Part shown: positions 1,250 to 53,498 of the stretch, in pieces
Layout of the letters: each line of letters begins with the position of its first letter
Numbering within the stretch: position 1 is the first letter of the stretch
Assembly: GCA_045837725.1 (NCBI GenBank)
Contig: JBEWZL010000302.1
Coordinates: 62,001-126,000 of the forward strand
Reading direction: 5' to 3'
Origin: Vermamoeba vermiformis
Taxonomy: Eukaryota
DNA length: 64,000 bases
Translations under genes and position numbers: made by a program
Notes under the pieces: generated by a model
What the model saw: only the letters and a program-made list of their open reading frames with translations
Databases searched by the model: none
What the model was told of the DNA's origin: nothing

Positions 1250-1980
1250 TGCTAAAACTCCAGCGGAGCCTACTTTAGGCACAATAATATGGAATTATAG
1301 TAGTATATATTATATTAGAGTATAGTACAATGTCTTATAATTGAAAATTAATTCAGAAACACAGCCCAGATATTATAAAATAGAATAAATGATTAGATGT
1401 CGCCGATATATTTAATATAAATATAAAATTATTGAATTAAATATTTGGATTATTTATAATCGTCACACCGTTCTCCGTTTCTGCGTTTATGACGTAAGCG
1501 CGTCACAATAAGGGTAAAAAATTGTAAATAGATAAGTTTTTATCTGATCAGTTTGCCGCGATGGCGTTAACTTCGTTGTGATGGCGATTAACTTGCCGTG
1601 ATGGCATCAAACTCATTCAACATATATATTGCCGTGATGGCCACAACCTCACCGTGATGGTGATAACATTGCTGTGATGGCAAAAGACACCCGGTGCACC
1701 TACAGCCGTGATGGCTTTGACTACACTGTGATGGTGTTATCCTGCCGCGATGGCAGTATGATCTCCGTGATGGAGAAAGTGTTCACCGTGATGGTGACTT
1801 CATAGTAAACCCTTGTAATGTAATAATAAAACCAGATCTACTGCTGCAGATCAACACCTCATAAAATACCACTAATATCTTATTGTTATGATATTATGGT
1901 GTATTATAAATTATATTGTACATATTATGATGGATTTGAGCTATATTGGCCAAAATTTAGGCTCCGCTGGAGTTTTAGCA
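1250..1980. mobile_element. Non-autonomous TIR element (MITE-like, ~730 bp) flanked by TA and containing a hairpin array
   Basis: Perfect 23-bp inverted repeats TGCTAAAACTCCAGCGGAGCCTA (1250-1272) and its reverse complement (1958-1980). TA lies on both sides (1248-49, 1981-82). No internal transposase ORF. Confidence 0.7.
1554..1797 (+). repeat. Array of 11 short stem-loops with conserved GYGAT loop
   Basis: Loops start at 1558, 1578, 1598, 1634, 1654, 1674, 1708, 1728, 1747, 1767 and 1788. Stems differ but stay complementary (e.g. tgcc/ggca, tcacc/ggtga, tctcc/ggaga, agcc/ggct, acact/ggtgt). Confidence 0.9.
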
Positions 1981-14580: not shown

Positions 14581-15859
14581 ATGATGCTTCATATTGTGCA
14601 CCGATTGCCAATAACGACGGTTAGCGTAGTGCTGCTTTGCGTGTACAGTCTCGTGTCAATCGTTTTGCAACGGATCAAGCGACATTTTGCGCGAAAAATG
14701 TATGTAATATTATGATATGTTGTATAGATAATATTTAATAGTATGATCACCTAAAACAAGAGAGTTCAAGTCGTAACGAAGTTTACTTAATTTTGAAAGG
14801 TACTTTACAAATCATTATTAACCTTAAATATAGTGTACAGCATTCAATATTGCCTAGAGAATTATTAAACGAAATTTTGAATGAAGTATTGGCGGATTCA
14901 AGCACATCCGTGATTGACTTGACATCCCTGTCACTCGTTTGCCGAGAATGGAATGAAAAAATATCCAAACACGAGATTTGGTTTCATTATATGAATACGA
15001 AGTGGATAAATTTCAAACACAAAGCGCGCGACATCCAGCTCAACAAAATTTTTCGGTCAACGGCAGCAGTATTATCTCCGAAGCTTTCATATGCAGTTCT
15101 GAGATACAGAATGCCATTATACAATTATTATGCAAGTGGATCGGTGCTTCTTGGCGACATGGAATTTTTGGAATTTCCAGCAGATCTGATCCCGCTTCGT
15201 TCAAACAAAAATCTGTGGGTCCCATGGCTCAATCACAATATCACCAAGCGACCAGAGACATTATGGAAGTTTCTATATTCAATAATAAGGCATCCTAAGT
15301 GGATTTATCCGTTACTGGCTTATCGAACCCCGGATGCCACTCACAAACACGACTTGGATCCGCTCGCTGTCACTCAAATCGATAAATTACTATTATATAT
15401 AGCAGTACGTATATTATTACACTATTAATCAGCATTTAATACTTACTCGATCAGATCTTGTTCAATTTCATGCCGTGGCTCGATCACGTGCTTATTGTCA
15501 AATTATCACGTGGCTTCGAACAATTCATGAACGGAAATTCAGCGTGGTACGATTACTTCCAATTATGGAAATATCCGGAGATGTCCACCGTTGCATGCCT
15601 GCAAACATTAACAGCTGCAACATCTTTGCAGGCCTTTGAAAGTTCATTTTTCAACGCGTCATTGATGACTATTCGAGTCGTTATGGTGGCTATTAGTGTG
15701 ACTACGGGCGACATGATGGCACTTTTAATTTTCTTTGTACTTGTCATACTGTCGATTGTAGTCCACGCACAAACCGATACTTTTGCGAAACGGCTCTATT
15801 GGGCCCGAGTGTGGCTAAGTGTTGGTTTATTTCCTGTAATTTGGTGCGCAATTATGTAA
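14581..15859 (+). CDS. Membrane-anchored F-box-like protein with polytopic C-terminus (paralog of 52014-53498)
   Basis: Exon 1 (14581-14699) encodes TM RLPITTVSVVLLCVYSLV. Exon 2 from 14834 encodes ILPRELLNEIL...LSLVCREWNEKI...IW, then WVPWLNHNI. The last exon is hydrophobic. Confidence 0.7.
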
Positions 15860-16689
15860 ATGATGCTCTGTAAAAGGTTACTCGTATAAAAACATTTTAT
15901 TCCCCGCTCCAGGTTTGATTGTTTGGATTAAATTATAAACCTTTTTTTGTATTGGGGCGCCGGCCTGTGGGTTTTTTTATTGGCCTGTTGGGGGGGGGGG
16001 GGGGGGGGGGGGGAAAAAAAAATAGCATTTGTATAATATAATACAAGGCATAAGAAAGAGGTCGAATAGAATTCGCAGCTTAGCGGTTGGAATGGGATCG
16101 AGATCCTCCTTCAACTTTTAATGCGAAATCTTTTCGCTTATTTGGTTGGCAAGAATATATTCGGGAGTATATTATGCCTTTTAGATATTGATATGGAAAT
16201 TTTAGTCCACTGTGTGATTCTAAGCCGAATATCTTCGCCCGCTCGCGATGAACTAATTACAATTTATACCAATGCGAAATCTCACAAGCGGGATGTTGCG
16301 GTCTTTCCTTATCCGCTATCACGAACGAAATCTCGATAATTTTTATCGTATTACACCTCGCATCCAAGTCTTCGATGACATCGAGCGGACCAAATACTTG
16401 CTAGTTGACTTGGCTATGCAGCAACAGGGGCCTTTCTTGACGATTCTCCTTCTTAATTTGCCGAAGATGTTGTACTTGCCGTTCTGTAAGCACTCTGCGA
16501 CGACGATGTAAGTTGTAGTTCATTGTTCCTGTGCTGTTATAAGTCGTTACTTATAGATAATGGTCACTACAGCTTCTTATTTATATTTTCCTATGATATA
16601 CTTCGGTGCTATTTCCCGACGGGCAAAAATAAAATTTTAACCAGTCCGGTTGTACAGACTTTTTACTTCATTTAATCCAATAGAAGACA

Positions 16690-19600
16690 ATGCACCAGTC
16701 TTTACAGTGTTTGGTTATCTTATTAGTGTTGTGTTTTGGCTTATCTTACGGCCAACAACAGCTTTCCGTCTTCGTGGCAGTGGAAGGTGGATCGGATGTG
16801 ACTGGCGATGGAACAATGGGCAGTCCTCTCCAAACAATTACTGCCGCACAAAATTATATTAGAAATAATATAACAAAGTCTGCTTATTCAGGTAAATTTT
16901 AACGAAGATTTTCTAGTTGGGGTTATTCACGCCAATTTGTTGCGTGTTTTGCGATTTTGCGGTTTGTTGGTTTTTGCGATGAAGTTTGTCACAAAATATT
17001 TTTTTTTGTCCTCGCTCGTAATTGACGCATCGACCACAACTGCTTCCTAACAGTCGCAGATTTAATGCGTTATCTTAACGGGTACGCGTGCACCCTTTAA
17101 CGAGGATGCTTGGTCTTTAACGAGATCTTTAAATTTGAGCTTAACCGCTCCGGCTTAATTGCCCTGGCCTAATAGCCTCTCTTAACGGAGAAATCCCATT
17201 AACGTGGGCTTGTCTTAATGGACTATCCTTAACGGGAAAAACCTTTAACGAGGTCTTCAAATGAATCCGGATTAATTTTTAATTGTCAGATTAAATGTTT
17301 TTTCAGTTTTTAAATTATATAAAAACATATATATAATTGTTTGATGACGTGCACGCAAAATTGCGGTTTTTCAACCGCCTCCACTAAAGAAATTTATCAA
17401 TGGGTCTACGATCCAGCAGAATTCAAAGAAAATAAACCACAAAATACGTTTTTGCTAAAATTTTCGCATTTGTGAGATTTTTTTGTGGTTTGCTAGCAAA
17501 ATTGACGTGAATAACCCCAAGTAGCGCGTAGATTCGGTTTAGTTTTTCAGTTTCAATCACATTTTTGAAACTATTACTAGGCACCATGGAAATATATGTT
17601 AACGTAATTGATATGACTAGTACTATTGATGCTAATATTTACTTTTAAAAGATATTTTCGTCGAGATCAGAGCCGGTTTATACTTTATTTCGTCTCCGCT
17701 CGCTTTCACCGCGGATGACTCAGGCACTGTGACTACTCGCATTACATATAGGTAACTATAAAGCGATTTCTTCACGTATGAGCTGCGCACGAATCACAAT
17801 TGAATTAATTTCCGAAATTAGCATTTATTTATCGATATAATCTGAGGTATTAGCCTTTATATAATCTTGACATTAATATACTTGACTTTATAGGGCTTAT
17901 AACGGCGAAGAAGTTCGTTTAATCGGAGGTACAACCATTGGCGGTTGGACATCCGTCACCGAAACTGCAATCCTAAATCGCCTGCACGATTCTGCTAAGG
18001 CGAATGTACGGTAGTACTACATCTATAGAATAGTATTAACTAATTATCCAATTCAGGTTATCGTGGCGTCACTCGGTTCGTTAGATCCTGGAGTTTTGAT
18101 GAGAAGAGGATTTGGCGCTAGCGGAGGGTATGCAGCCATGGAATTATTCTTTAAAACTGAGCCTATGATTATGGCACGATATCCTAATAGCGTAAGTAGT
18201 CTTATTAAAACACTTTTGTCCAAGTTCCGAATCTGATCTCGTTTACATCCAGGATTTTCTCAAATTATCTGCCTTCGATAGCAACACAAATACTGTATCG
18301 TTTGATAGTAAGACTAATAACGTCGCAAATTGGCAATTAGAATCCGATCCTTGGGCTTTTGGCTTCTGGTTTTACGATTGGGCAGATGAGTAAGTGACAT
18401 TTTTGACACTTTGACACGTGTCAAACTTTAATTAACCGGTATAAATGCAGCTTTATCCCGATCAAGCAGATTACAAGTCTCGGAGGCACGAATGTGTCAT
18501 TTGTGGCTAATGCTCAAACGAGTTATGGTTTTGCAGTCAATCAACGATTTTATTTGCAAAACTTTTTGTCCGAACTTGACGCCCCTGGCGAGTACTACAT
18601 TGATCGCAACAACTCGAAGATCTATTTTTGGCCTACTTCTACTGACTACACTCAAAATGACTTCATCATTTCAACCACAAACAACGTTTTGACTTTGACG
18701 AACGTCGCGTACTTCACTTTGCAAGGCCTCACTATTGAAGCTTCAAGAAAAGATGTAATTATTTAACTGCCCAAAAAAATACCAAAATTAATTCTTTCCT
18801 CATTAGGGCATTGTCGGATCCAACCTCCGAAACGTAAGTTCATTACCAACCTGAAAAATTTTCTGAAAATGAATAACGATGGCATCAATAGGTCACTTTT
18901 ACTGACCTTACTGTTCGTAACTTGGGCACGCACGCGATGAACTTGGGGGGTCCCGAGAACATTCTCGTTGAGCGATGCACTGTCAGCGGTCCCGGAAACT
19001 CCGGAATTAGATTGAGCGGAGGAATCCGTGCCAATCTCACTCGATCCAGTAAGTTTCCTTATATGGTAATCAAAGCTTATCTAACGTACAACACAGACCA
19101 CGTGGCTCGTAACAACGTCGTAAAAAATTTCAGTCGTTTTGCGAAAACTTATCAACCTGCTTTTAACGTCGCTGGTGTTGGTATTACTATCGAACATAAT
19201 GAAATGTATAATGGTCCTCATACTGCTTTGCTTTGGAGCGGAAACTATCACACGATGCAGTACAACATTGTTCACGATGTACTTGCCCTACTTTGACCCA
19301 TCTTTTGAACGCTATATTAAATTTAAATATATATGCAGGTATGCACTGAGACAGGAGACGTCGGCGCCTTTTATTCAGGACGTGATTGGACTCTACGTGG
19401 AAACGTCATTAAGCACAATTTGTTCTAGTAAGTCAGATCCGACGTCATCTCAAAAATTAGAAATTTCGTTCTAACGGTCATTTTATTCAGTAATATTATT
19501 GGCCCTGGTAACCTTGGTGCATCTGGCGTATATTTCGACGATCAATATAGCTCTGGTTCGATCTACGGAAATATTTTTTACAACGTCTACCGAGTATGTT

Positions 19601-34721: not shown

Positions 34722-35420
34722 TTGCTAGCATGCTTTTTGCTTGGTATGAATAAAAATGTTTCTTTTCCAGATCTAGAAATAGAACTTATAACTATTATCA
34801 TTTTCAACGGTACGGCCATTACAAAATAATTTTTATGTCGCTCGTGATCAATTACGAGATTACATTTTAAGCAGCGAACAAATTGACAACACAAATCACG
34901 CTGCATTAAAGTGATTTAAAAATAAGGCACTGAATTTACGTAAACCCTTTTTTGGCTAATGATTATCGAGAATAATTATCAACTATGTGATACGAGAATA
35001 TTATTAGTATAATTACTAAAGCTCTATGTACATCATTATTTAATTTGACACGCAAATTTTTTCTTTTCTATCGCGATAGATCTGGGTTACTTACTACGGC
35101 GACTATGACGATCAAATCTGCTTGTGCTTCATTTTAATTACGAGACGTTTATCATAAGTGATTAGTCCATACTATACATTTCTTAAATCATGCCCCACTC
35201 GCTACAATCACGAACTTTCTGTTTGTAACGGATCAGGTAATACCGCAGTCTGTTTGGCAAGCGTATATGATTGTAACTGTATGGATGACTATAGAGTGAT
35301 TCCAAGCGGAGATTGAAAAACTAATTAATTTGAGTTCGTGGGTCACATTGACATTCGTGACACGAGACATTAATTAAAATTTGTAAGTGGTTTGGGTCAA
35401 TTAATTTTATTATTAGATCA

Positions 35421-36323
35421 ATGCGATTAACACTTATCGTAGTATATTTATTCGCTGCCAGTTGCTTGGCTGCACCGCCAGCGTATTACCCTTTTGGACC
35501 GCAAGCGGATGTACCTGAAACTTCTCTGCTTGGGTGGAGGCGCTGTTGGAACACTAGCTACGCGTCAGAAGATCCTAATACTACTGATATCACCACTATG
35601 TATGGAGCTTGCACGGGCGACTACTTGTTATACGGATGTCGAGAAGACGGCGCTACGAATCTAGCAGTTCTCGCTGCCGGTCAAAGAACAGCCGTATTAA
35701 ATGATACTGGTAATGCAACGGATTACCCAACATCTGTTACGAACAATAACGGAGTGGATTGGTACTTCAACCGATGGAGCTCGATCGGATTCGCTAAAGA
35801 AGGAGATGCGATCCTAAAAGACAGCTGCGACTTCGTTAATGGTACTTATCCCGACTTGAAGCTTTGTTGGCGTGCAGGTAATATATATTCCGATCACATT
35901 CTGTGTACCAATTAATTAACACGTAATTTTACAGGAAATGGCGACAACAAATATTTGTACGGCGGTACTCGTTGTGGATCTGCTACAGGCATTTACGAAG
36001 GCTGGAATCGGGAAATTTGGATGCCGGATCCATGTGGCAACAAGAATGAAGGCGATTATTGCGATAATGGCAGTACTTGCACGATCAACACTTGCCGATC
36101 GGGTGTTTGCGTTAGCGGATCTGCTGTGACGTGCACAGTACCTGAAGGCTGTTTAAGCTCGACATGTAACGCTAAGACTGGTCAATGCGAGGATTTTTGT
36201 CCTGATCCAGAAGCTACTCCAATTGAAAACAAATTGCCGCCGACAACCGAAGTTACATCTAGCGCAGTGCAGATCTGGACATTTCAATTTGTATTTATAC
36301 TTGCTATTGAAGCATTAATCTAA
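35421..36323 (+). CDS. Secreted/GPI-type protein: conserved Cys domain + Cys-rich repeats (paralog of 38214-39420)
   Basis: Signal peptide; YYPFGPQ..GWRRCW..C.GDYLLYGCR..NGVDWYF..SIGFAKEGD..CD..LCW..RCG; CDNGSTCT repeats; hydrophobic tail. Confidence 0.8.
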
Positions 36324-37752: not shown

Positions 37753-38050
37753 GGACCGTACAAAACGTTCAAGGAAACGCTGGCACCACAACAACAACGC
37801 TGGTGAGTGCAGTTTCGTTACATTGCTGAGAGACGAGATATGTAAGTATAACTACAATGAAGAATAACCGATGCCGCAAAGCTGAATCATGATTAAGTTC
37901 GGATCTCCGACGACAACTTTAGTTTGCGTGTTTTTTTCGATAAAATAATTGTATCCGCTTTTAGCTATGACTTTAATATAAATCGAAGAGGCGGTAAAGA
38001 TTGAAAATTGTTGGTTTTTTATGGAACTGGCATTTTTGATTTTGTTATGT

Positions 38051-38091
<41 letters not shown>

Positions 38092-38213
38092 TTTTTTTTT
38101 TTTTTTTTTTTTTTTATTTTTTCGGGTTTTTTTTGGGGGCCTTTTTTTAAAAAAAAAAAAAAAAATAAATCACAAAAATTGTCGTTAACTAATTCACAAT
38201 TATTTAGATAAAA

Positions 38214-39420
38214 ATGCAAAGACCACAAACGATATTAGTTTTATTAGCGTTAGGTTTTGTGGCTTGCTTGGCTACACAACCGACGTATTACCCGTACGGG
38301 CCACAAACAAACGTACCGGAAACGGATTTGCTTGGTTGGAGACGCTGTTGGAGTAATAGCTACGTAGATACCCCGTATGACTACACTGCCAATATTACAT
38401 CTATTTTTACGGAGTGCTCAGGCGACTACCTGCTTTACGGATGCCGATCAGATGGATCAACGAATCTGGCTCTTCTTGCGGCTGGCCAAAGGAGTGCAGT
38501 ATTGAATAATACTGGATTAACTTCGGAAGATGTTACTAATGATAATGGAGTCGCTTGGTACTTCTACCCAGATACGTCTATTGGATTTGCAAAAGAAGGA
38601 GATCAAATCAATAAGGACGATTGCGATTATATTAACGGAACATTCCCTCAATTAAAACTTTGCTGGCACACTTACGGTAAGTCTGCAGCTGAGTTAAACG
38701 TTTTTTCCAACGGATAACTAGAAAAAAAATGGAATTCTGATATCGCTTAATATACAATAAAATAACAATAATTTAATTATATATATAATAGAATGGACAA
38801 TCTTTTAACGCTTTATTTTTCATTTCGTAACTTTCTGATCGGGATTTAAAAATTTAAAAATGAAATGCCACCTTAACGATCCAATTTTATCAGGAAACGA
38901 TTTGGAGGGATTTATTATTCGCGGATATCGTTGCGGAGCTAGCGTATCTATCGACTCCGGCTGGGGCCGTGAGATCTGGATGCCCGATCCTTGTGGCAAC
39001 ATGGTCGATGGTGCTCAATGCGACGATGGCAACCCATGTACAACAGACACTACGTGCTCTGCAGGTGTATGTGGAGGAGGCTCAGAAGTGACTTGCGATC
39101 AGTGCATGGAGTGCGATCCAAACAGCGGATGTGTTCCCGTACAAAACGGCACGAGTTGTTCCGACGGCAATTTGTGCACTGAAACTGACACCTGTCAAGC
39201 TGGCGAGTGCGTCGGTACGACTATTGAATGCACCGTGCCTGCAGGCTGCTTCAACTCGACGTGCAATGCAAGCACTGGTCAATGCGGCAACCAATGCCCA
39301 CCAATCGCAACACCTGGCAAAACGCCGGTTGCAACACCGACTGCAAAGACTTCTGATGCCGCACAACTCGTCGTATTTAACGTACTTATTCTCGCTGTAG
39401 CAGCGATTATTTTTTATTAA
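38214..39420 (+). CDS. Secreted/GPI-type protein: conserved Cys domain + CDDGNPCT-type repeats
   Basis: Paralog of 35421-36323 with the same intron position. CDDGNPCTTDTTCSAGVC and CSDGNLCTETDTCQAGEC repeats, TP-rich stalk, hydrophobic tail. Confidence 0.85.
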
Positions 39421-52013: not shown

Positions 52014-53498
52014 CTACACTAACGCAGCCCATCCAATAGTTCCAATAGCCAAACCTAAAAATACATCTCCAAATTTCATATTTTGCTCGGCAAAATTAAG
52101 TCGGCTTTGGCGGAACACGTCCAGAAGGACAGCAAAAAATGCTGTGGATCCAAGGATTAATAATCCAGGATAAAAATAGACCAACGGTGATAATACCAAT
52201 AATACCACTACTAATAATGTTCTTCTACTTTCAAAATTTGGTATTATCTTTTTGCGAACCCCAAACACAAATCCACCAAAGGTTGCCGAGATAAATGCCG
52301 CTGTTACCAAAATTGGAAATAATCCTCGCATAAATAACGCTGTAAGTAGCAATAATACGCCCTTGACTATTATTAAGCTAGGACTCAAATGTAAATTATC
52401 AAAAAGCTGCATCCACAGTAAGAAACTGACTGATTGGATCTGGGCCGTTAAACTCCACGAATTCTTCATCCATAAGCCATAATACTTTCCACTTATAACT
52501 TCCTTAATTACATCCGTTGAGTTCCATATCATATTATCAGCCCAAGGTAATACTGACAAGCCAATCTATAAAAACTAAATTAATACAATTTTCATGCGCC
52601 ATCGGCATTCAGCTGCTTTATATATTTGATATATAGTGCATATTATTATACTTACGGAAAGTACGAAGAGAATTTTCTTCACTCTATTCGCGCTATCGTG
52701 ATCCGCGTAAATGCTGTATTTTTTTTTCTCATCGTATGCATCGTAAACCAACGGAAAGATCCATCTTGGGTATCTAATAGATGTATATAGCCATTTCCAT
52801 ATTATTTCGGGTGCCTTAAGTATATTGTGATTTAACCAAGGCGTCCACAACTTGTTGTTATTTTTGTTCGATTTCAGATCCGGCGTTAATTTTGCTAAAG
52901 TCGGTCTGGGCTTTTGTCCGTGATAATACTGGTCAATTCTACGTCTAAATAGATAATACATGATCTTCGGCGAGAATACGCCTTTTATGCCAAGCAGTCT
53001 TTCGATCGGATCTGTAATCTGATTATCTTTGTCGCCAAGATCCTCTAATCTATTACTATTACGCACAATTTCCTCGAGATATTTAAACCATCGTTCATTA
53101 TGGGATATGAATTTGAACCAATCTTTGCAAACTAAGCCAAGTTCAAGTATCTGGTGGTGTGTTTCGTTTAATGTGTCTAATTCTGTTTCTTCGAAAATAT
53201 GTTTTAATATTTCGTGTTGAATATCTTGCAATAAGAATGGCTCTTGCGCGCTATTAATAATCAGTGAGTAAATATTTAACCATTAAATTTTCAATTGAAT
53301 TTGCATTCGCTTGATATTAGCGATATCAGTACTCATATCGCTTAAATATGTAATATTTATCATATTATAAACTTAATTTTACCTCTTTTTGGTGGCGAAG
53401 TAAGTCTTGATCTTTCTAACCGCCACTGAAACTACTGTGTACGCGCTGAATAGCGCCAACGCACTTGTTGTTAGCGGTAAACGCCTTAAAATATACAT
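52014..53498 (-). CDS. Membrane-anchored F-box-like protein with polytopic C-terminus (paralog of 14581-15859)
   Basis: Exon 1 RRLPLTTSALALF; LQDIQHEILKHIF...LGLVCKDWFKFI...RW; WTPWLNHNI; hydrophobic last exon. Confidence 0.7.

Follow-up and report, generated by a model that had tools for sequence, protein, structure and literature searches.

A phased array of eleven hairpins with a near-constant loop is the central module of a small, gene-less DNA transposon

Introduction

Repeat arrays inside small transposons are already known, and tandem repeats in such elements tend to be regarded as cargo or as the origin of satellite DNA. In hAT and CACTA transposons, subterminal arrays of short motifs lie near both ends and in both orientations, with no known pairing constraint. 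Hairpins are read as such at the ends of IS200/IS605 elements, in REP/BIME sequences with their RAYT proteins, and in integron attC sites; these systems are bacterial, employ HUH or tyrosine enzymes, produce no target duplication, and are not known to comprise 11 phased units.

The internal repeats of other gene-less transposons are satellite-like monomers or microsatellites, and the consulted portions of the reports describe no joint constraint on loop and stem of the kind presented below (PMC7492417, PMC4067079). According to the same portions, HINEs combine palindromic inverted repeats and tandem repeats in the center with a short palindrome that follows the 3' inverted repeat, and they insert without a target duplication (PMC4067079, PMC7492417). 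Maverick/Polinton elements, as far as the consulted part of one report goes, have 5'-AG...CT-3' end motifs and a 6-bp duplication (PMC8097293).

An array that bears two signatures of constraint suggests that internal repeats of this kind can be working parts. Here we describe such an array, found in a 64-kb stretch of DNA (hereafter, the window) that is A+T-rich (about 30-40% G+C), contains short exons with GT...AG-like introns, and looks eukaryotic; the proteins encoded in the window have distant relatives only, the best being 58% identical. A preliminary description, made from the sequence by itself, had reported the hairpins and proposed what they might be for; the outcome for its claims is given with the results that bear on them.

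Results

The array and its units

The motif YYGYGATGG has 13 matches in the 64-kb window, compared with 2.54 ± 1.62 in shuffled sequences, none of 100 of which reaches 13, and 11 of the 13, every one on the + strand, sit at 1556-1794. They are the cores of a hairpin array delimited at 1553-1799 (+ strand) by motif scan, alignment, folding and a covariance model, in which each of the 11 units has a 5-bp frame and a GYGAT loop. The unit cores are placed at 1556, 1576 and 1596, at 1632, 1652 and 1672, and at 1706, 1726, 1745, 1765 and 1786, with start-to-start spacings of 20, 20, 36, 20, 20, 34, 20, 19, 20 and 21 nt, so the units are grouped in blocks of 3, 3 and 5 with a within-block phase of 19-21 nt. 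Linkers are A/T-rich and 4-7 nt long; two longer spacers occupy 1608-1628 and 1684-1702, and the latter contains the palindrome GGTGCACC at 1693-1700. The loop comprises 5 nt (GTGAT in 9 units, GCGAT in 2), the stems are 3-5 bp long, and a sixth position is paired in just one of the 11 units. A covariance model of the unit recovers all 11 at 21-26 bits and nothing else above 15 bits within 64 kb, and no second cluster of hairpins with the same loop occurs anywhere in the window. Motif scan, spacing and folding therefore confirm the phased array of 11 hairpins with a constant loop, in blocks of 3, 3 and 5, that had been described at the outset.

The array is more than a row of copies diverging evenly along the unit from head to tail. 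Tandem Repeats Finder reports a period of 20 in only 2.7 copies, at 1553-1605, and blocks 1 and 2 are 76% alike across 54 nt. Over the 19 columns of the unit alignment there are 55 departures from the column majority; the seven core columns GYGATGG account for only 2 of them (P < 1e-5; 100,000 random placements), leaving 53 in the flanks outside the core. Because Tandem Repeats Finder sees 2.7 copies, the departures cluster outside the 7-nt core, and the stems covary (see below), the array is not a simple minisatellite. The earlier statement that it is not a simple tandem repeat holds on these grounds, core and self-complementarity both being kept.

Stem pairing and covariation

Covariation was counted on an ungapped alignment of the 11 units (66 cells) against 500 shuffles, and all of it is covariation between paralogous units of one array, whose related rows can beat every shuffle without structure. 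Counted in this way, 78.8% of the 66 cells are paired (shuffles, 67.7 ± 3.2%), both sides are changed in 10 cells (shuffles, 3.3 ± 1.6), and the covariation score is 0.539 (shuffles, 0.258 ± 0.045), none of the 500 shuffles reaching any of the three values. Sliding the 3' partner by 1-3 columns reduced pairing to 33-64%. Two other counts do not rise above the shuffles, namely pairs with a change on both sides (3 vs 2.4; 232 of 500 shuffles) and further pair types (9 vs 7.6; 119 of 500). Flanks that change in complementary pairs had been noted before, and the doubly changed cells and the covariation score, which exceed all 500 shuffles, bear this out.

The changes are spread over the outer stem. 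Position 3 is occupied by GC (7), AU (3) and UA (1), position 4 by CG (5), UA (3), AU (1) and UG (1), and position 5 by UA (6), AU (1) and CG (1); three pair types at each of the three positions need several independent double changes. A compensatory pair is also seen between corresponding units of the duplicated 54-nt blocks, where unit 2 has G-C and unit 5 has A-T. Two constraints act together: the loop with its closing pairs is fixed, while the stems need only to pair.

On the + strand, the 5-bp frame contains 5 T·G cells and no A·C cells, so every non-Watson-Crick cell that still pairs is T·G on that strand, as expected if the hairpin is what is read. The frame also has 4 pyrimidine-pyrimidine mismatches at the stem bases of units 1, 3, 4 and 7, because of which the stems of these units are 3-4 bp long. 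The original claim that the mismatches are exclusively G-T wobbles on the + strand is therefore correct for the cells that pair and has to be amended for those that do not. The strand-specific structure deduced from it keeps the 5-to-0 count in its favor; as an argument it is weak, since 3 of the 5 wobbles are C-to-T changes at the CpG closing the loop and the summed unit energies as RNA differ by only 3.8 kcal/mol (-52.3 on the + strand vs -48.5 on the - strand).

Pairing between arms could also be maintained by mutation. Under this explanation the array would be a passenger minisatellite, selfish or neutral, with a palindromic 20-nt unit whose symmetry arises when template switching during replication, within small inverted repeats, uses one arm as the template for its partner, with no fold being used; the consulted part of one report states that template switching can, in a single event, generate perfect stems along with compensatory changes of several bases (PMC8794818). 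The tandem, higher-order organization of the array, with its 54-nt blocks and its period of 20, fits such an origin. The same 9-mer occurs in simple minisatellites of many unrelated metagenome and bacterial contigs, and tandem repeats are common inside gene-less transposons according to the portions consulted (PMC7492417, PMC4067079). Template switching does not protect a loop, however, and here the loop and the GG that follows it are almost invariant, nearly all departures being in the flanks. Moreover, the arms are just 5 nt long, the minisatellites found elsewhere have identical units and no varied paired stems, and the wobbles are one-sided. We consider this explanation unlikely.

Folding of the units and of the whole array

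When the units are folded singly as RNA, the + strand forms the described hairpin in all 11 cases, with energies from -2.7 to -7.7 kcal/mol; the - strand folds in 10 of the 11, with the 5-nt loop in 8. With DNA parameters the single units have energies of -0.8 to -4.9 kcal/mol. Folded as one RNA, the whole array prefers long-range pairing between units over 11 local hairpins, the + strand reaching -89.3 kcal/mol (z = -3.57) and the - strand z = -1.76; the whole-array fold with DNA parameters has z = -2.12.

The greater stability of the hairpins as RNA than as DNA and the lower z-score of the + strand RNA are in line with a transposon-borne transcript, either an RNA acting as scaffold or sponge, with 11 GNRA-like GYGA(U) loops, or a long imperfect hairpin that feeds small-RNA silencing of the transposon family. 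The long hairpin is conceivable because every unit can pair with every other. The resemblance of GYGA(U) to a GNRA loop, on which the scaffold version draws, is a supposition of ours and counts against that version. The signals flanking the array and the RNA data relevant to a transcript are given below.

The surrounding element

The array is the central module of a gene-less DNA transposon of about 751 bp (1240-1990) with inverted-repeat ends. Its left end (1240-1286, + strand) begins with AGA, followed by 4 mismatches and then a 26-nt perfect run, and includes the 21-nt end core TGCTAAAACTCCAGCGGAGCC (1250-1270), which contains the small palindrome CTCC-AGC-GGAG at 1258-1268. The right end (1944-1990, - strand) terminates in TCT and carries the palindrome CTCC-GCT-GGAG (1962-1972) and the terminal hairpin GTTTTA-GCA-TAAAAC (1972-1986), which stops 4 nt from the end of the element. 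The arms at 1247-1286 and 1944-1983 are 40 nt long and 85% complementary; compared in register from 1240 and 1990, the ends match at 29 of the first 35 positions, and the 21-nt perfect core occurs twice in the window, where no occurrence is expected. On either side lies the direct repeat CTTGGATA, a putative target-site duplication of 6-8 bp, at 1232-1239 on the left and at 1989-1996 on the right, the first two letters of the right copy overlapping the end of the element when this is read as 1240-1990. The duplication may be 6, 7 or 8 bp long. Outside the 8-mer, a local tandem repeat in the flanks finds no support (514 of 2000 shuffles give as high a score).

Both modules that adjoin the array are non-coding. 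The left one (1287-1552, + strand) is A+T-rich and contains the inverted repeat TGACG-TAAGCG-CGTCA at 1490-1505, and the right one (1800-1943, + strand) contains AATAAA at 1825-1830 and, around 1836-1853, a 5-bp stem with an 8-nt loop (GATCT...AGATC). The longest stop-to-stop frame within the element has 64 aa and crosses the repeats, and a frame of 120 aa begins inside the element at 1830 and exits through the right end to 2192. The density of small palindromes in the element is borderline and A/T-driven (19, where the window averages 8.9 and has its 95th percentile at 18). No second copy of the element is present within the 64-kb window.

Presence and absence of the element

Thirty-five DNA contigs of the same organism (run X2) were aligned to the locus. 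One joins 1231 to 1989, skipping 757 nt and thus the element, with 7 junction letters that fit either side, and others are identical to the filled site. Since one contig of the same organism is without it, the element is an insertion polymorphism: some DNA contigs of the source organism carry it here and one does not. It has been recently mobile.

The small mobile element that has the array as its core probably has a few near-identical relatives. In one X2 contig the array portion 1539-1691 stands beside unlike sequence left of 1539, another contig matches exactly up to 1991 and then diverges, and another carries a 6-nt insertion after 1687. Among the X2 differences listed, no base substitution falls inside the hairpins.

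Run X2 gave no coverage of the left module at 1288-1531; together with the unlike sequence left of 1539, this may mean that the version of the element in that sample has a different left half. A 203-nt contig (depth 2.8) from run X7, which is labelled as another organism, is identical to 1597-1799 and so spans hairpins 3-11, and no other part of the 1.8-kb stretch is covered in that run; the contig may be carry-over of the source organism or may come from an element shared with another species.

A second presence/absence difference lies outside the element at 2026-2079, where one X2 contig skips from 2025 to 2080 (54 nt) with 5 other letters between, and where other contigs end against sequence containing the palindrome TTTGACACGTGTCAAA. 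The 8-mers TTGACACT and GTGTCAAA, related to TTTGACACGTGTCAAA, form short tandem runs at 18402, 20329, 46969 and 47077; this is possibly another small repeat family.

Class of the element

An element that makes a duplication of 6-8 bp is the simplest reading. Terminal inverted repeats, a flanking duplication with an empty site, the absence of coding capacity and the small size are all MITE-like. A TA duplication, as in Tc1/mariner-like elements, ranks low: TA does flank the perfect core on either side, but the contig without the element would then need an independent deletion, and the flanks are no tandem repeat beyond the 8-mer. Replitrons, whose ends are direct repeats in the part of the source consulted, fit poorly.

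The array could also represent the central repeats of a Helentron-type rolling-circle element, similar to HINEs or DINE-1, and its + strand would then be truly single-stranded during transposition. The palindromic inverted repeat and the 3' palindrome of HINEs are both seen here, CTCC-AGC-GGAG within the repeat, GTTTTA-GCA-TAAAAC near the right end and the array between them recalling the HINE layout; TT is found at both junctions, and the exact match of one contig ends at 1991. HINEs insert at TT without a duplication, however, whereas an 8-bp direct repeat flanks the insert here and would have to be an 8-nt coincidence. The inverted repeats, furthermore, are 47 nt long and in register from the very ends instead of being 11-15 nt long and subterminal. 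We regard a Helentron-type origin as highly doubtful.

The transposon context also agrees with an array of sites read in double-stranded DNA. In that case GYGATGG would be bound by a domain of a transposase or a host factor at intervals of two helical turns, and the palindromy would be secondary. The subterminal repeats of hAT or CACTA elements would be the model, and several superfamilies are known to carry arrays of short sites for their transposase; the invariant 7-mer is asymmetric, and a phase of 19-21 bp suits such binding. A duplex site leaves unexplained, however, why positions outside the 7-mer vary and yet stay complementary, and the array is central and in one orientation, not near both ends. 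In addition, stems of 5 bp are probably too short for cruciforms. On balance, we find duplex binding rather improbable.

Neighboring genes and expression

The element falls in a gap of about 1.4 kb between two divergent genes. The left neighbor is on the - strand, with a frame that is read up to 968 and begins with M; the right neighbor is on the + strand, with a probable start at 2380; neighboring exons lie at 2386-2568. The sequence TGACGTAAG is found twice in the 64-kb window, where 0.33 copies would be expected and 4 of 100 shuffles have at least as many. One copy, at 1060-1068, lies about 90 nt upstream of the start of the - strand gene, in its promoter region, and the other, at 1490-1498, lies inside the element, 55 nt upstream of the array, as half of TGACG-N6-CGTCA. 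TGACGTAAG may be a promoter motif carried by the element. Together with the AATAAA located 28 nt downstream of the array, it may allow a small transcription unit, both signals being weak.

These two signals are the further points in favor of the transposon-borne transcript, the sole other copy of TGACGTAAG in the window being in the promoter region of a neighboring gene. Against the transcript, AATAAA and A/T-rich boxes are common in DNA of 30-35% G+C, no Rfam family matches at E <= 1, and two RNA runs contain no read of the array, which is a weak test. Overall, we consider the transcript quite improbable. The suggestion of a CsrB-type sponge RNA made in the preliminary description is not upheld, given the absence of Rfam matches, the lack of a GGA loop motif, and the absence of array reads in these two weakly informative runs.

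The two RNA runs, which carry the same species label, have no reads on 1471-2600 and leave the neighboring exons bare too, and since their reads are divergent they are given little weight. Most of the aligned reads (550 and 222) are poly-A matches at 975-1021, with 517 and 200 less than 90% alike, and every read on 800-920 disagrees with the window at each of 11 listed places. Because the neighboring exons are bare and the reads carry fixed differences, the runs say little on expression; the strain that they represent is apparently divergent and may be without the element. None of the sequencing runs listed as containing the sequence is recorded as RNA.

With regard to the differences at 800-920, the species label may cover divergent lineages, or the reads may derive from a paralogue. 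Elsewhere in the window, two similar open frames (35361-35915 and 38208-38717, compared by eye) resemble secreted Cys-rich proteins and share YYP(F/Y)GPQ...LLGWRRCW, and two others (14742-15428 and 52575-53282, also by eye) have W(V/T)PWLNHNI in common. A T-rich tract of 100 nt is present at 38033-38134, and a G24 run at 15990-16013.

Searches for relatives

No diverged homologue was found in Rfam or in the metagenome, viral, prokaryote, plasmid and phage collections, and the only other copies seen are the near-identical ones in contigs. Rfam gave no match at E <= 1 on 1000-2300, the 21-nt end motif had no match in metagenome contigs or in viral contigs, and the plasmid and phage collections gave no match.

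Pattern searches returned candidates that were rejected. A two-hairpin pattern yielded 32 loci in viral contigs, apparently chance occurrences or else coding repeats whose spacing was a multiple of 3; at one locus, 11 motifs stood at multiples of 30. A three-hairpin pattern yielded 86 loci in metagenome contigs, screened for at least 3 motifs, with no relative among them; the 7 examined unit by unit were identical-unit minisatellites or 21-nt coding repeats, none with varied paired stems. The same kind of pattern gave 95 loci in prokaryote genomes, and a looser one at least 118 loci in viral contigs, none a relative; the 3 prokaryote or viral loci examined closely were all simple G+C-rich repeats.

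Judged from titles and the beginnings of abstracts, none of the listed literature matches to CCGTGATGG concerns a transposable element or a hairpin array. Likewise, as far as the listed matches on non-autonomous transposons with palindromic or hairpin internal tandem repeats go, they describe no such array. Within the parts of the literature searched, we found no eukaryotic element reported to carry a short-hairpin array that combines an invariant loop with compensatory stems.

Discussion

We hypothesize that the array consists of multivalent, hairpin-shaped binding sites for a loop-specific protein, read in single-stranded DNA or RNA and probably serving the transposon. We hold this reading tentatively, as a real possibility that falls short of an even chance. 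A loop-reading protein is favored because it explains both constraints, whereas a duplex binder explains only the fixed loop and template switching only the paired stems.

Each of the 11 units would be a shaped binding site, in which a 5-bp stem presents the fixed GYGAT loop on a fixed stack of two C-G closing pairs and otherwise needs only to pair. Strung at a 20-nt phase along A/T-rich linkers, the units would offer a loop-specific protein a multivalent docking platform whenever the + strand is single-stranded, either in a transcript or as ssDNA made during replication or transposition. The reader would most likely be a protein that serves the propagation of the element, such as a mobilizing enzyme, an accessory protein or a host factor. 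Recognition sites for a mobilizing enzyme had been suggested before, and the context is compatible with that suggestion, the array lying in the middle of an insertion-polymorphic, gene-less element with inverted-repeat ends. The loop-reading model takes the constraint to be selection rather than mutation bias and the folded form to be what is read, and it supposes which nucleic acid folds and who binds it. GYGA(U) may likewise be a GNRA-like loop.

Several points count against the loop-reading protein. The covariation is between paralogues of one array, two of its five measures stay within the range of the shuffles, and the two RNA runs, a weak test, have no read on the array. The strand asymmetry is small, 3 of the 5 wobbles are CpG transitions, and the whole RNA favors pairing between units. 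Elements that make target duplications are not, to our knowledge, known to pass through a single-stranded stage, and the internal sequences of gene-less transposons are often passengers.

A broader version of the proposal would have a eukaryotic, duplication-making transposon family carry a multivalent array of single-strand hairpins, with invariant GNRA-like loops on free but paired stems, as a cis module, read in ssDNA or RNA by the enzyme of the family or by a hijacked host protein, as a counterpart of REP/RAYT or IS200/IS605 recognition. We regard this version as unlikely. If it were true, the module would parallel in nature the engineered arrays of stem-loop tags. If the hairpins are read single-stranded, a eukaryotic element of the cut-and-paste type would use a mode of recognition until now linked with bacterial HUH elements, and the unit would offer a compact natural protein-hairpin pair, possibly useful as a tag. 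If template switching explains the symmetry, the array would instead be a clean natural case of mutation keeping many small hairpins intact without selection on the fold, an outcome that bears on the use of covariation as proof of RNA structure.

Among the systems with which the locus can be compared, Mavericks share AG...CT termini and a possible 6-bp duplication (TGGATA) when the element is read as 1240-1990, a faint match of two letters per end. They differ in being 15-20 kb long, with long inverted repeats and viral genes, whereas the element described here has 751 bp and no gene. HINE and DINE-1 elements, which are gene-less Helentron derivatives, resemble it in the palindromic inverted repeats close to their ends, the stem-loop on the 3' side, the repeats in the center and the T-rich junctions; here, in contrast, an 8-bp repeat flanks the element where they have none, and the inverted repeats are longer and reach the termini.

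The arrays of hAT and CACTA transposons resemble the present one in that a short motif recurs many times within a transposon, possibly providing avidity for a multimeric enzyme, and an 8-bp duplication would fit hAT. The array described here differs in being single, central and in one orientation, and its arms covary; the termini AGA...TCT seem to depart from the usual hAT end pattern. CsrB/RsmZ RNAs and Xist repeat A likewise consist of repeated short hairpins with a fixed loop motif and A/U-rich linkers; they differ from the present array, which has no GGA loop and no Rfam match and lies inside a mobile element.

With the IS200/IS605 ends, REP/BIME sequences and attC sites, the array shares a conserved structure with free stem sequence, a short fixed motif and a link to mobility; searches of prokaryote, plasmid and phage collections found no homology to these prokaryotic ssDNA hairpin signals. 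MITE-like transposons with internal tandem repeats share with the element a length below 1 kb, inverted ends, a flanking repeat, the lack of a gene, presence/absence polymorphism and centrally placed repeats. What sets the element described here apart from them is that its repeats are 20-nt hairpin units with an invariant loop and compensatory stems.
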